DNA of 64,000 nucleotides from Pseudomonadota bacterium (GTDB taxonomy: Bacteria; Pseudomonadota; Gammaproteobacteria; UBA1113). The DNA lies in assembly GCA_021781965.1 (NCBI GenBank), contig JAJXVU010000003.1, positions 15,880 through 79,879 of the forward strand. Direction: 5' to 3'. The notes beneath the pieces were generated by a model. That model was given only the letters and a program-made list of their open reading frames with translations, ran no database searches and was not told where the DNA came from. How positions within the stretch are numbered: position 1 is the stretch's first letter; each line of letters begins with the position of its first letter. Of this stretch, positions 30,821 to 38,971 are shown one piece after another. Position numbers and translations under genes: made by a program.

Positions 30821-31442
30821 CAATATAAATGCCCCTTTAGCAAAACGTTTCCGTGGTTTTTTTCCGGTCATTATTGATGTTGAGACCAGTGGTTTTGATG
30901 CCAAAAAAAATGCCTTATTAGAAATCGCTGCCGTAACCGTAGAAATGAATGAACATGGCTTCTTACAACCCAAACAATCTTTGTTTTACGCTACCCTGCC
31001 TTTTGAAGGCGCCAAGCTTGATCCGGCCTCACTGGCTTTCACAGGGATTATTCCCGATCACCCTTTTCGCATGGCCATCGATGAGAAAAAAGCATTGACT
31101 GAATTATTTTCGGCACTAAAAAAAGAGATGAAATTAGCACATTGCAAACGCTGCGTCTTAGTCGGTCACAATGCCGCTTTTGACCTGAGTTTTGTAGCCG
31201 CTGCCTGCGAGCGCAGTCATGTTAAGAATGTTTTTCATCCATTTACTACATTTGATACCGCAGCCTTAAGCGCTCTAGTCTTAGGTGAAACTGTACTCGC
31301 TACCGCTCTAGAACGCGCAAAATTACCCTTTGATAATAAACAAGCTCATTCGGCTTTATATGATGCTGAACGCACCGCGGAATTATTTTGCTTTATTGTG
31401 AATCGTTGGCAAGAATTGGGTGGATGGGAAAATACCCTATGA
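30813..31442 (+). CDS. rnt: ribonuclease T
   Basis: 209-aa DEDDh exonuclease (VIIDVETSGFD, HNAAFD, YDAERTAELF). Confidence 0.85.
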   Translation: MNDNINAPLAKRFRGFFPVIIDVETSGFDAKKNALLEIAAVTVEMNEHGFLQPKQSLFYATLPFEGAKLDPASLAFTGIIPDHPFRMAIDEKKALTELFSALKKEMKLAHCKRCVLVGHNAAFDLSFVAAACERSHVKNVFHPFTTFDTAALSALVLGETVLATALERAKLPFDNKQAHSALYDAERTAELFCFIVNRWQELGGWENTL

Positions 31443-31919
31443 GATCCCTAGCCTTTCAGCAATGGCTTTAATCCCCCTTTCCTTCTGAATACGTTTTGGT
31501 TGTTCATCTTGTCTAGCTATAGTCTCTATATTGAGTGCAACAACAATACTATTCATTGCGCTATCTAACTGTTTAAACAATATCTTGTTTTTTTTGGTGT
31601 AATCTCCCGCATTAAAAAATCGTTTAATTTTTTCTTTTTTTCCTTCTTTCTTATCACTACAACTCAATGCTAACATATACTGGGTACAGTCATCATTTAG
31701 AATATCTACCAACTCCTTTATAGACTCTTTTAATCCTTGAATATTATCTTTCACTCTTATTTTCTCATCAAGAATTGTATTATTTAGAAATAATTCTATG
31801 TGCGCTATTTTTTCCCTGAGTTTTTGGCTTAAAACTTTTAGATTTTTTGCTTTTTTCCCCTGGTCATAAATAGATTTAACCGTTTTTATTCCCTCTAAAA
31901 TCAATAAGCCATCCACCAT
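31437..31919 (-). CDS. hypothetical coiled-coil protein
   Basis: 160-aa AT-rich, Lys/Glu-rich ORF at the left edge of the island. No recognised motifs. Confidence 0.4.
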   Translation of the reverse strand: MVDGLLILEGIKTVKSIYDQGKKAKNLKVLSQKLREKIAHIELFLNNTILDEKIRVKDNIQGLKESIKELVDILNDDCTQYMLALSCSDKKEGKKEKIKRFFNAGDYTKKNKILFKQLDSAMNSIVVALNIETIARQDEQPKRIQKERGIKAIAERLGIS

Positions 31920-31953
31920 TTTTTTCTCCTAAAAAAATTATAATGAACCAACT

Positions 31954-32095
31954 CCCGCGGATCTAGTCAGTGCGAGCAAGCGACACAATTCCGGCTTTAT
32001 AAGGTTTCACGTTATTTCATCCCTGCTATACGTGATATTCCTTTTTATTACCTCAATATTTCCTGAATTGCGTCGCTTGCTCGCACTGATACTAG
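31954..32095. repeat. ~29-bp near-perfect inverted repeats separated by ~80 bp
   Basis: ctagtcagtgcgagcaagcgacacaattc at 31954-31982 and gaattgcgtcgcttgctcgcactgatactag at 32065-32095 are reverse complements apart from one mismatch and a 2-bp indel. Confidence 0.45.
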
Positions 32096-32348
32096 ATGCT
32101 CCTATAAAGAAAATATTATTTAATATGATTCATATTAAATAATATTGGCTATTGATGTCAATAGTCTTCTGGAAAAAACATAAAAATACTATTAATCTTA
32201 CATTTTCTGACTATATTATTAACCTTTAATCATGTTTTGATTATTTTTTAAACATTAAATGGACGTTTTTCAAAAGTGTTGGCCGCTTTCCACCCTGAAA
32301 TTGTGAGGAAATCATAGAAATATTTTTTATTAAAAATAATATATACTC

Positions 32349-32368
32349 CTCTTTAACATAGTAAAGAG
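32349..32368. promoter_or_regulatory. 7-6-7 palindrome ctctttaacatagtaaagag, candidate operator of the CI/LexA-like repressor
   Basis: Perfect inverted arms (CTCTTTA / TAAAGAG) lie 20 bp upstream of the repressor start codon. Confidence 0.3.
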
Positions 32369-32388
32369 ATCGTGTATACTTCCTGACT

Positions 32389-36978: not shown

Positions 36979-36985
36979 TGTTTTA

Positions 36986-37242
36986 TGTATACTCATAGCA
37001 GTTGATTTTTAGGCGAGGCGCCTAGCCTTCGAGCACCAGGAGTGACGTACTCTGTCATATACTAGTGCGAGATGGGCGCGGGCAACAAAGCATAAAAGTC
37101 AAATGCGAAGAGTATATACTCAAGCAGTTGATTTTTAGGCGAGGCGCCTAGCCTTCGAGCACCAGGAGTGTAGTACTCTACATGACTGGGGCGAGATGGG
37201 CGTAGGCAACAAAGCATAAAAGTCAAATGCGAAGAGTATATA
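36986..37242. repeat. two tandem copies of the ~125-bp structured repeat element (same family as 26124-26376)
   Basis: Boundary palindromes TGTATACT at 36986, AGTATATACT at 37111 and AGTATATA at 37235. Internal GGCGAGGCGCC and GCACCAGG...CTGG(T/G)GC hairpins. The 3' end runs directly into the AAGGAG Shine-Dalgarno of the downstream RR gene. Confidence 0.6.
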
Positions 37243-37253
37243 AGGAGTTTTAT

Positions 37254-38177
37254 ATGCCGTATCTGTACTCATACCCAACTACCACATTGTTAGTTGATGA
37301 TAACGAGAATTTTCTATCGACCATAATGACATCATTATCTGATAAACATTCTTGTGTAATTGAATCCCACCCAATCAAAGCATTAGAGATTATTAAAAAG
37401 AATCAGATTGAACATAACGTCCATTTTAATAATCAAAATAAGCACGAACCAGATGATATTCTGGCAGAGAATAATCAGATTTCACAAATAATTCAAACTG
37501 AGGAGTTTATTACCCTTTCTAAATCACCCAATCGACATCAAGAAATAACCACCATCATACTGGATCATGATATGCCTGGGATGGATGGATTTTCATTTGC
37601 ATATAGCCTTGACAAAAAAGATATCTCTATTATCATGCTAACGGGTGTAGCAAGTCATGAATTAGCCGTAGAAGCCTTTAATAGGGGTATTATTGACAAA
37701 TTTTTACTAAAAGATTCCCCCAATTTGAAATTGATACTATCCCAGCATATTGAGGACGCAAAACATAATTTTTTCTACAATCAAACTCGCAAACTGGCTT
37801 GCAATACTCCTTTGTATAACATCTTATTTTCGGCAGAATTTTCAGAGCTATTTTCAAAAATTATAATGGACTACAAGATAATAGAATATTATCTGCTCAA
37901 TTCAAACGGTTCTTATTTACTCATTACAGAGCAAAATGAGCCTCTCGTTTTTTCTTTTATGCCGGAACTGGAACTCAACTACTATAGAGATGTCGTAGAG
38001 GGCAATCACTCAGAGAAAATATTAATAGACAAGCTAAATACTGGCTATATTCCCTGTTTTTATAACAATGAGATTAACTTGCCTATATCTGGCTGGAGCG
38101 ATTATCTACATTTAGCGGATAAACTCAAAATAAACAATGCGCAGTATTATTATGCTATTCGCAAGTTAGATACCTAA
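37254..38177 (+). CDS. atypical response regulator: N-terminal receiver domain + ~190-aa C-terminal domain of unknown function (no recognisable HTH)
   Basis: REC residues LLVDDNEN, IILDHDMPGMDG, IMLTG and KF. The start is the ATG at 37254, preceded by AAGGAG; the track ORF would start inside the repeat. Confidence 0.65.
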   Translation: MPYLYSYPTTTLLVDDNENFLSTIMTSLSDKHSCVIESHPIKALEIIKKNQIEHNVHFNNQNKHEPDDILAENNQISQIIQTEEFITLSKSPNRHQEITTIILDHDMPGMDGFSFAYSLDKKDISIIMLTGVASHELAVEAFNRGIIDKFLLKDSPNLKLILSQHIEDAKHNFFYNQTRKLACNTPLYNILFSAEFSELFSKIIMDYKIIEYYLLNSNGSYLLITEQNEPLVFSFMPELELNYYRDVVEGNHSEKILIDKLNTGYIPCFYNNEINLPISGWSDYLHLADKLKINNAQYYYAIRKLDT

Positions 38178-38233
38178 GTTATTATTAGATAGGACAAACT
38201 ATTTTATATTCAGAGCACGGAGTTAGGTCCAAA

Positions 38234-38366
38234 GCTATACTCCCAGAGATTTGGTTTTAGGCGAGGCGCCTACTCCTCCAGTCCCAGGAATGACGTACTA
38301 TGTCATATAGTGGGGGCGAGATGGGCGAAGGCAACAACGCCTATAGCCAAAGCGCGAAAAGTATAT
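38234..38366. repeat. single copy of the ~125-bp structured repeat element
   Basis: ...ggttttaggcgaggcgcc...cccaggaatgacgtactatgtcatatagtgggggcgagatgggcgaaggcaaca...gaaaagtatat. The terminal AGTATAT abuts the ahpC stop codon. Confidence 0.55.
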
Positions 38367-38971
38367 TACAGCACGTCTGCATTACCAGACAAATAAGCGC
38401 TCACACCTTCGGAAGTAGGTTTCATCGCTTTTTCGCCTTTTTGCCAGCCTGCAGGGCATACTTCACCGTGTTTGTTGGCAAATTGAATGGCATCGATCAA
38501 ACGTAATATTTCATCTATATCGCGACCGATAGGTAAATCATTGATGATTTCGCTACGTACCAATCCTGTAGCATCCACCAAAACCGCTGCACGGAATGCA
38601 ACGCTAGCCGTAGGATGTTCTATGCCGTAACCCTGGCAAATGCTGTGATTCACATCCGCTACCATCGTATATTTTACAGCACCAATACCGCCCTTGTTGA
38701 TAGGGGTATTGCGCCAAGCAGCATGTGTAAATTGTGAGTCTATAGAAACCGCTATAACTTCTACATTACGCGCTTGAAATTCAGCCATGCGTTTGTCCAG
38801 GGCAATCAGCTCCGTAGGACAAACAAAGGTAAAATCTAAAGGATAAAAGAATATTAAGGCTTCCTTACCCTTGGTGCGCTCAGCAAAATGGTAATCGCTA
38901 ATGATTTCACCATTAGCCAACACCGCGCTAGCTCTAAAATCTGGCGCATTACGCCCTACTAATACCGTCAT
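38366..38971 (-). CDS. ahpC: 2-Cys peroxiredoxin (AhpC/Tsa family)
   Basis: 201 aa with FTFVCPTE (peroxidatic Cys) and the resolving Cys in HGEVCPAGW. Confidence 0.9.
   Translation of the reverse strand: MTVLVGRNAPDFRASAVLANGEIISDYHFAERTKGKEALIFFYPLDFTFVCPTELIALDKRMAEFQARNVEVIAVSIDSQFTHAAWRNTPINKGGIGAVKYTMVADVNHSICQGYGIEHPTASVAFRAAVLVDATGLVRSEIINDLPIGRDIDEILRLIDAIQFANKHGEVCPAGWQKGEKAMKPTSEGVSAYLSGNADVL

Follow-up and report, generated by a model that had tools for sequence, protein, structure and literature searches.

A candidate phosphorelay joining a periplasmic binding protein, a hybrid kinase and a DHp-only protein to an LqsR-family regulator in an accessory block between rnt and ahpC

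Here we describe a five-gene signalling cassette in a 64-kb stretch of the gammaproteobacterial contig JAJXVU010000003.1, the whole of which we call the window. The cassette lies in a 6.8-kb variable block (31431..38200) between rnt and ahpC, and its sequence predicts a binding-protein-coupled multistep phosphorelay with an LqsR-family end regulator, each part of which is of a known kind. The reading that we favour, with modest confidence, is a ligand-sensing relay that would run from the binding protein to a hybrid kinase with two receivers (HK-REC-REC), on to an 82-residue protein made of a DHp (dimerisation and histidine phosphotransfer) domain only, and from there to the LqsR-family regulator, with transcriptional output through a helix-turn-helix (HTH) protein. 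A first-pass annotation of the window had called this assembly a system not yet described; its parts are of described kinds, but the literature searched yielded neither a description of the complete cassette nor an experimental characterisation of it. Within that literature, the combination of parts, a relay through a lone DHp domain and the unvarying association of an LqsR-type regulator with the HTH protein appear to be undescribed. Compared loci and genomes carry the labels L001 to L038.

All six open reading frames of the block are present where the first-pass annotation had placed them. The five cassette genes lie on the plus strand and encode an XRE-type HTH transcription factor of 229 aa with a LexA/CI-fold beta domain, here termed pseudo-S24 (32389..33078); a secreted family-5 solute-binding protein of 483 aa, the proposed ligand receptor of the kinase (33097..34548); a membrane hybrid histidine kinase of 721 aa, in which a transmembrane (TM) segment, a ~128-aa periplasmic loop and a second TM segment precede the DHp, CA (catalytic, ATP-binding), REC1 and REC2 domains (34549..36714); the DHp-only protein of 82 aa, with the H-box H10-V-V-K-T-P-L, the proposed histidine phosphotransfer step (36730..36978); and an LqsR-family response regulator of 307 aa, with a receiver (Asp104) and an LqsR-type C-terminal domain (37254..38177). 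A longer reading frame for the regulator starts at 37227 and extends into an intergenic repeat; the start at 37254 is preferred because the orthologues are also 307 aa long. The sixth gene, on the minus strand (31437..31919), encodes a hypothetical protein of 160 aa that belongs to the block and stands outside the conserved cassette. All block genes are under purifying selection, with ratios of nonsynonymous to synonymous substitution (dN/dS) of 0.11-0.24.

The binding protein scores 43.2 bits against the Pfam model SBP_bac_5 (cut-off 32.4; E 3.8e-11), and its family profile matches the solved members HbpA, AppA, OppA, MppA and DppA in the PDB over residues ~28-448 (E 9e-17 to 1e-7). A hydropathy calculation indicates a signal peptide (hydrophobic residues 3-24, then LFA-EK), so that a family model above threshold, a near-full-length match to solved members and an export signal together place the protein in the family. 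Six of its cysteines are invariant, and its TAA stop codon directly abuts the ATG of the kinase gene, an arrangement of translational coupling. In the kinase, the TM segments (residues 12-39 and 168-194) flank the ~128-aa loop, HATPase_c is matched at E 4.5e-17, and the Pfam match to Response_reg is weak (E 0.019). Across 34 homologues, down to 29% identity, the kinase core is invariant at H271, N384/N388, D416/G420 and G441/G443/G445 and at least 90% conserved at G418, so the H-box histidine and the N, G1 and G2 boxes of a hybrid kinase are all in place. The receiver residues are kept as well: D502/D503, D552 and K601 in REC1 and D623, D668 and K715 in REC2 are invariant in these homologues, and T579 and T696, respectively, are at least 90% conserved. 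Because the key residues are kept throughout, the kinase reads as an HK-REC-REC protein with both receivers apparently competent.

At the other end of the proposed relay, the regulator matches Pfam Response_reg (E 3.5e-10) and, in a phmmer search of the PDB, aligns over its full length with chain 6sy9_A (residues 7-301 against 31-328; E 3.2e-33). The first-pass annotation had seen a receiver with an atypical, unknown second domain; the receiver and the extra domain stand, whereas the second domain is not unknown, since the whole is an LqsR-family protein. Residues D14/D15, D104, T130 and K153 are present, and D104 aligns with D128 of the 6sy9 chain, which fits D108 plus a 20-residue tag. D108 is the phospho-acceptor of LqsR (PMC3376566), a protein with a canonical receiver, phosphorylation-driven dimerisation and a GGDEF-like output domain for which no cyclase activity was detected (PMC10653808, PMC11237717). 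Full-length homology and the D108-equivalent aspartate are thus both found, but the clustering with lqsA and lqsS stated for lqsR genes (PMC3376566) is not: the cassette and its neighbours in the window hold no lqsA-like or lqsS-like gene. Such clustering is also lacking for PhcX of Ralstonia, an LqsR-family regulator rewired to other sensory systems (PMC10653808), and for a second Legionella lqsR branch (PMC8023197).

Between kinase and regulator, the cassette contains no HPt-domain gene, and a hybrid kinase needs a histidine relay. The stand-alone, histidine-containing DHp protein that the first-pass annotation proposed here is present and conserved. It carries the HisKA-type H-box H10-V-V-K-T-P-L-S-T-I, its gene is preceded by a GAGGG Shine-Dalgarno sequence 6 nt upstream and evolves at a dN/dS of 0.11, and its relatives in public data are 100%, 87% and 84% identical, with 46% identity to the protein of L002. 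The H-box pattern H-x-x-[KRS]-T-P-L is invariant, and the middle gene of the cassette always retains the histidine. In profile-profile comparison (hhalign), the alignment of the 82-aa protein with the DHp domain of a DHp(-CA) family found in related cassettes takes in 74-75 of the 82 residues (probability 95-97%, E 2e-8 to 4e-10); with the DHp domain of the adjacent hybrid kinase, the protein matches in the H-box only. A DHp domain with a conserved phosphorylatable histidine, as expected of a DHp phosphotransferase, is therefore in hand, and the protein is presumably a four-helix-bundle dimer.

The family to which it aligns offers a graded series. Beside LqsR-like regulators, L030 has a PAS-DHp-CA kinase that retains its G1 and G2 boxes and L031 a PAS-DHp-CA-REC hybrid kinase; in the middle cassette position, L004 has a 244-aa protein with a Pfam HisKA match and a degenerate ATPase domain, and L029 and L032 have proteins of 248-258 aa with a HATPase_c match and a damaged G1 box. 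The best curated model for the DHp(-CA) family is the NCBIfam model LuxN, for four of four proteins (E 1e-32 to 6e-6). Given this alignment and the shared cassette position, the 82-aa protein is what is left, as a DHp domain alone, of the kinase lineage that goes with the LqsR-type regulator. The series from full kinase through DHp with a dead ATPase domain to DHp alone would be a natural example of phosphotransferases evolving from kinases, and of a minimal one. In the small proteins of the window, L001 and L002, the acidic residue that follows the histidine (H+1) is lost to V or R, and the threonine at H+4 is retained; in HisKA domains, the acidic H+1 residue is needed for autokinase activity and the H+4 threonine is critical for phosphatase activity. 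The exact DHp-only subfamily is very rare, since a profile search of 1.84 billion representatives gave, apart from one repetitive protein of 1585 aa, no more than two small relatives, of 84 aa and 91 aa. In the 1585-aa protein (P0237), 11 stretches match the small-protein profile (E 9e-11), and it may be a repetitive coiled coil or an array of tandem modules.

The cassette recurs in divergent settings, both in Legionellales-like metagenome genomes and on Legionella plasmids, and the family of its binding protein changes between them. The closest relatives are uncultured metagenome-assembled genomes, and an origin of the window in Coxiella burnetii, which GC content and the repeats had suggested, was rejected. 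L001 has all five genes at the same site, with a kinase that is 88% identical, and L002 has them at a different locus, with 58% identity. In L004/L013 and in L029, the HTH protein and an LqsR-like regulator are accompanied by a binding protein, an HK-REC-REC kinase and a DHp plus CA-like protein of 244-258 aa; the binding protein of L029 is an unclassified protein of 381 aa with an export-type N-terminus and no Pfam match. In L032 a DHp plus CA-like protein of 248 aa is encoded together with the HTH protein and an LqsR-like regulator, and a distant family-5 binding-protein gene and a hybrid-kinase fragment lie 2.5-5.5 kb off, with other genes between. On the Legionella pneumophila plasmid pLELO (L038, NC_018141.1, 139929-150432), the set comprises the HTH protein, an alpha/beta hydrolase, a Peripla_BP_6-like protein, an HK-REC-REC kinase (matching that of the window at E 8e-97), a histidine protein of 75 aa and an LqsR-like regulator; near-identical cassettes occur on pLELO-type plasmids of L. 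longbeachae, L. sainthelensi and L. anisa, and plasmid pLlyPCM2298_2 of L. lytica (L037) has the same set without the binding protein. A published survey had noted plasmid-borne second lqsR homologues in Legionella (PMC8023197), and the second-lqsR plasmid loci examined here show a preserved neighbourhood. The plasmid cassettes lie near csrA and traT.

Family-5 binding proteins of the window type are rare (7 loci in 185,579 species genomes, plus 13 metagenome loci); their hosts are Legionellales, including Legionella feeleii, unclassified Gammaproteobacteria, Elusimicrobia and Bacteriovoracaceae. In the majority of the distant relatives (L004/L013, L005/L011/L014, L007, L009, L012 and L015-L025), the binding-protein gene is overlapped at its 5' end by a gene for a hexapeptide-repeat acyltransferase, upstream of which a MatE exporter is sometimes encoded. 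Such a gene order would be in keeping with a self-made signal that is synthesised, exported and sensed. In L003 and L006 a DPP-IV/S9-type peptidase gene precedes the binding-protein gene. The window itself holds no Hexapep or MatE homologue, no second LqsR-like gene and no further LuxN-like kinase elsewhere.

The HTH protein is the constant partner of the regulator: in all seven independent contexts examined, namely the window clade, L002, L004, L029, L031, L032 and the plasmids, a window-type HTH protein occurs together with an LqsR-like regulator. A fold search finds the LexA/CI fold C-terminal to its DNA-binding domain. Upstream of its gene lies a perfect 21-bp palindrome (32119..32139; TTTAATATGA-T-TCATATTAAA, in full TTTAATATGATTCATATTAAA), which is a reasonable candidate for its operator. 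The palindrome is identical in L001 and recurs with two mismatches in L029 (12721-12741), 67-87 nt upstream of an HTH gene whose product is ~37% identical to that of the window; the 477 kb of loci compared hold no other site with two or fewer mismatches. The first palindrome is followed, 10 bp downstream, by a second one, CTATTGATGTCAATAG (32150-32165), and a four-mismatch relative of the 21-bp palindrome within the kinase gene (36118-36138) is at about chance level. The plasmids pLELO and pLlyPCM2298_2 share a palindrome of their own, ATGGTWAAAAT...ATTTTWACCAT, upstream of the HTH gene. At L004, a 319-aa ankyrin-repeat protein (17713-18672) is similar to the window HTH protein (E 3e-14), and part of the HTH protein may thus be fused to Ank repeats elsewhere.

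Taken together, these features suggest the following pathway. The family-5 binding protein would bind a periplasmic ligand, for which a peptide-like compound is the best guess, and dock on the ~128-residue loop of the kinase, which would autophosphorylate on H271 and pass the phosphoryl group to D552 of REC1, to D668 of REC2, or to both, D668 serving as a second acceptor or as a sink. A dimer of the DHp-only protein would then take the group on H10 and hand it to D104 of the regulator. Transcriptional output would follow through the co-conserved CI/LexA-fold HTH protein, a putative dimeric repressor that no longer cleaves itself and whose probable binding site is the 21-bp palindrome ahead of the operon.

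Several points weigh against this pathway. The 82-aa protein matches no Pfam model, its profile matches in the PDB are weak (best E 0.045; mostly the DHp regions of EnvZ, HK853 and BceS, together with unrelated coiled coils), and an AlphaFold2 monomer built from a three-sequence alignment reached a pLDDT of 58, too low to be informative. The small proteins of the plasmids (72-75 aa) share with it only position, size and a histidine near residue 11, and hhalign finds no homology between them and the window protein. No small histidine protein was seen in the flanks examined of L003, L010 and L015, and no regulator or HTH gene within 6-10 kb at L005/L011. Two tandem intergenic repeats, described below, separate the DHp gene from the regulator gene and may uncouple their expression. 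The LqsR assignment leans on 6sy9, which we take to be L. pneumophila LqsR and which the database labels only as "Response regulator". For the operator, there are only two independent occurrences of the palindrome, and it was not found upstream in L002 or in the plasmids, where other palindromes stand instead. Finally, isolated DHp domains, such as domain A of EnvZ, show phosphatase activity.

That last point bears on a different role for the 82-aa protein, one that we regard as rather unlikely: it would be no relay at all but a phosphatase of the regulator, a sequestering decoy, or a poison that forms heterodimers with a kinase. Phosphorylation of the regulator would then come straight from the hybrid kinase, whose two receivers would serve as intramolecular sinks. 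A retained phosphatase-critical threonine alongside a lost acidic residue would fit such a role, as would the related loci that lack a detectable small histidine protein and the plasmid proteins that lack detectable homology to it. A pure decoy, however, would not need the histidine that is invariant in every member, and the conservation of all receiver residues in 34 hybrid kinases is typical of relays. Moreover, beyond the H-box the protein aligns with the DHp domain of the regulator-adjacent kinase family and not with that of the hybrid kinase, and phosphatase and relay roles can coexist. The phosphorelay is the reading that we prefer.

How the block came to its site is a separate matter. 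The first-pass annotation had held it to be absent from the usual backbone, and a synteny check agrees: in L033 (GCA_027351165.1), with flanks ~90% identical to those of the window, rnt is joined to ahpC across 313 bp without the block. Homology between the two stops at ~31430-31436 and restarts at 38201; in the place of the block, L033 has 157 unrelated bp. The empty site is also seen in L034-L036, and L001 carries the block at the same site. A check of composition likewise upheld the claimed AT-richness, which is real but moderate: mean GC content is 34.6% in the cassette genes versus 42.9 ± 2.8% in the other 48 genes of the window, and GC at third codon positions (GC3) 31.7% versus 38.2 ± 4.5%. 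Presence or absence at a conserved site and deviant composition, two marks of a genomic island, are thus found. Mobility hallmarks at the borders are not: there is no integrase, tRNA gene, att site or target duplication, and no direct repeat or shared word of at least 7 bp at the junctions; the tRNA genes nearest to the block are at 8731-9047. The left border falls within the last codons of rnt (31431-31442), where RNase T ends in ...GGWENTL (209 aa) in block carriers and in ...GGWKEV (208 aa) in empty-site genomes, and the stop codon of the 160-aa gene overlaps the end of rnt.

Two kinds of repeat had led the first-pass annotation to describe the locus as framed by mobile-element-like flanks. 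Both are real. The inverted repeat is a palindromic, MITE-like (miniature inverted-repeat transposable element) single-copy element (31954..32095) with 28-nt GC-rich arms (31967-31994 and 32062-32089) that are 93% complementary, and it is strongly structured (fold z-score -8.8). It stands at the same place in L001 with 87% conservation, where the changes in the arms are not compensatory. The other is a palindromic repeat of ~125 bp (fold z-score -8.3) with TATAC...GTATA-like termini, present in eight copies in the 64 kb, all intergenic, including those at 8815-8943, 26125-26374 (two), 36986-37242 (two), 38234-38367 and 55143-55271. Its dispersed intergenic copies and long hairpins are those of a MITE- or REP-like (repetitive extragenic palindromic) family, and a search of Rfam found no family for any of the repeats.

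Neither kind frames the block. The inverted repeat lies ~520 bp inside the left border. The two tandem ~125-bp units between the DHp and regulator genes (36986..37242) are inside the block, and appear to be a recent insertion in the window genome because L001, with the same genes at the same site, has no repeat in its cassette and a gap of 19 nt between the two genes. The third local copy (38234..38367), beside ahpC, is outside the block and belongs to the backbone, being present in the empty-site genome L033. Placement of the ~125-bp repeat varies among close relatives, with a copy of L001 lying instead between grx and sodB; in the window, the copy at 8815-8943 sits between the tRNA genes 8731-8804 and 8958-9047.

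It is therefore unlikely, in our judgement, that the block is a recently acquired mobile island inserted by or with flanking repeat elements. The repeats are a genome-wide family, one supposed flank is part of the empty site, and the borders are bare of mobility genes and marks. The flanks group as ((window, L033), L001), and with the block present in the window and in L001 a single deletion in the L033 lineage is the most parsimonious history. Polymorphic presence and low GC content do speak for acquisition, as do the distant cassettes at other loci, which lie next to integrase, TraT or type IV secretion system (T4SS) genes and on conjugative plasmids. Synonymous divergence between the window and L001 also points that way, at 0.30-0.38 in five of the six block genes versus 0.52-1.08 in eight flanking housekeeping genes, or about half; the lower values suggest either later exchange of the block between lineages by recombination or slower silent-site evolution. 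In either case, the block is accessory and exchangeable, and its borders are not set by repeats.

Turning back to the relay and its input, the first-pass coupling of binding protein to hybrid kinase gains comparative support. At every locus with both genes intact (12 or more, down to 30% identity) the two genes abut or overlap. At least 690 proteins share the C-terminal ~65% of the kinase, behind N-terminal sensors of many kinds. Every kinase homologue with a coverage of 95% or more adjoins a family-5 binding protein, and kinases with other N-termini pair with binding proteins of other families; the N-terminal sensor region and the kind of binding protein vary together. Neither in the window nor in any flank examined is an ABC permease or ATPase encoded near the binding protein. 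These observations make it highly improbable that the binding protein is an orphan transport component serving an ABC importer encoded elsewhere, with a fortuitously adjacent kinase whose own loop senses some other input, even though family-5 binding proteins are mainly transport-associated and the Vibrio cholerae protein CBP serves both transport and signalling (PMC8050422).

At the output, the first-pass annotation had named an S24-type CI/LexA repressor that would couple the module to RecA or stress through proteolytic cleavage. The fold holds; membership in the S24 family does not. The HTH protein scores 13 bits against Pfam S24, below the cut-off of 23.3, and a PDB sequence search with the protein or its family profile gave no S24 match. 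Ser138, in D-E-S-M-A-P, aligns with S119 of Escherichia coli LexA (G-M-S-M), a column that holds S, G, A or C in 40 members, and the position of the LexA lysine is an invariant arginine (Arg179) with no conserved lysine nearby; the serine was mapped by local alignment to the LexA sequence, and the lysine by motif comparison only. The linker contains no Ala-Gly or Cys-Gly cleavage site. A second, unrelated HTH plus S24-like type, found beside LqsR-like regulators in L006, L010 and L015, has kept the lysine and lost the serine; in either type, the module seems to serve dimerisation or interaction without cleavage. An SOS-type repressor that cleaves itself on RecA or stress signals in the manner of LexA or lambda CI, which the HTH domain, the LexA/CI fold and the serine of the window protein would allow, is thus hardly credible, for the family lacks the Ser-Lys dyad and the Ala-Gly site, and RecA-cleavable coupling is not supported.

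The 160-aa protein is kept only in the closest relatives, such as L001 (E 4e-80; dN/dS 0.24), its gene is missing from the L002 cassette, and family and domain searches with it gave no significant match. A reading of the block as a defence island was dropped because PADLOC returned no defence-system match for the six proteins. A scan for promoters and terminators gave results at chance level. Elsewhere in the window, genes for proteins of 239 aa (409-1128) and 1201 aa (9729-13334) are AT-rich like the cassette (~35.6% GC) and may be accessory. The repeats and the SOS-like repressor that made the locus look exotic are incidental.

A bolder and more tentative interpretation, possible rather than probable in our view, joins these elements into an undescribed class of signalling pathway in Legionellales-like bacteria and on Legionella conjugative plasmids, with three features that would be new. 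A kinase would have been pared down to an 82-residue DHp-only module, and this module, the smallest form of a histidine phosphotransferase, would link a hybrid kinase to an LqsR-family regulator. The regulator, which has no DNA-binding domain, would act as a phosphorylation-controlled anti-repressor on a dedicated CI/LexA-fold pseudo-protease repressor, a substitute for cleavage induced by RecA. Ligand specificity would lie with exchangeable periplasmic binding proteins, and the acyltransferase and MatE neighbours in distant relatives suggest that the signal may be self-produced. In Legionella and Ralstonia, LqsR-family regulators govern virulence, motility and competence; here an LqsR-type regulator always comes with a specific CI-fold HTH protein, which offers a concrete and testable candidate for the output step of the family. 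Because such cassettes are carried on pLELO-type plasmids, the pathway is open to study in culturable, genetically tractable strains; the cassette may be a horizontally spread sensory add-on in pathogens.

Among known systems, LexA, lambda CI and UmuD of the S24 family share their fold with the HTH protein, which lacks their Ser-Lys dyad and cleavage site. The Lqs system of Legionella shares with the cassette a full-length LqsR-family end regulator, and the histidine protein proposed to feed that regulator here belongs to a LuxN-type kinase family; LqsS and CqsS are probably quorum-sensing kinases of the same broad kind. The two differ in that the cassette and the 64-kb window hold neither an LqsA synthase nor a six-helix LqsS/LqsT receptor, and in that the input here is a periplasmic binding protein with an HK-REC-REC kinase and an extra histidine step. 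The cassette also has a CI-fold HTH protein, and the lqs cluster has none.

For the middle of the proposed relay, the nearest counterparts are ChpT, in the CckA-ChpT-CtrA pathway, and Spo0B, in both of which, as in the cassette, a kinase-derived DHp protein with a conserved histidine stands between a receiver and an end regulator and has lost autokinase activity. The 244-258-aa proteins of related cassettes share their architecture of a DHp with a degenerate CA domain (PMC3433190). ChpT and Spo0B keep this C-terminal CA-like domain, whereas the 82-aa protein of the window is DHp only and, deriving from a LuxN-like kinase family, has no sequence relationship to them.

For the input, ligand sensing by a binding protein on a kinase is known from LuxP-LuxQ, TorT-TorS and CBP-ChiS, and the last, from Vibrio cholerae, is a precedent for the control of a hybrid kinase by a family-5 binding protein that acts on the kinase's periplasmic domain (PMC8050422). 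The binding-protein profile of the cassette matches CBP (1zty) at E 7e-7, a likeness in sequence at the level of the family only. CBP-ChiS differs from the cassette in that ChiS binds DNA itself and needs no relay, and in that CBP, whose ligand is a chitin oligosaccharide, also serves an ABC transporter.

The LuxP-LuxQ/LuxU/LuxO system of Vibrio is built differently in its parts. LuxP is a type-I sugar-binding-like protein, LuxQ has one receiver, LuxU is a monomeric HPt four-helix bundle and LuxO is a sigma-54 activator; in their place, the cassette has a family-5 binding protein, two receivers, and a DHp instead of an HPt protein. In its logic, however, it is the same as the arrangement proposed here, with a binding protein on a hybrid kinase, a separate small histidine protein and a response regulator.

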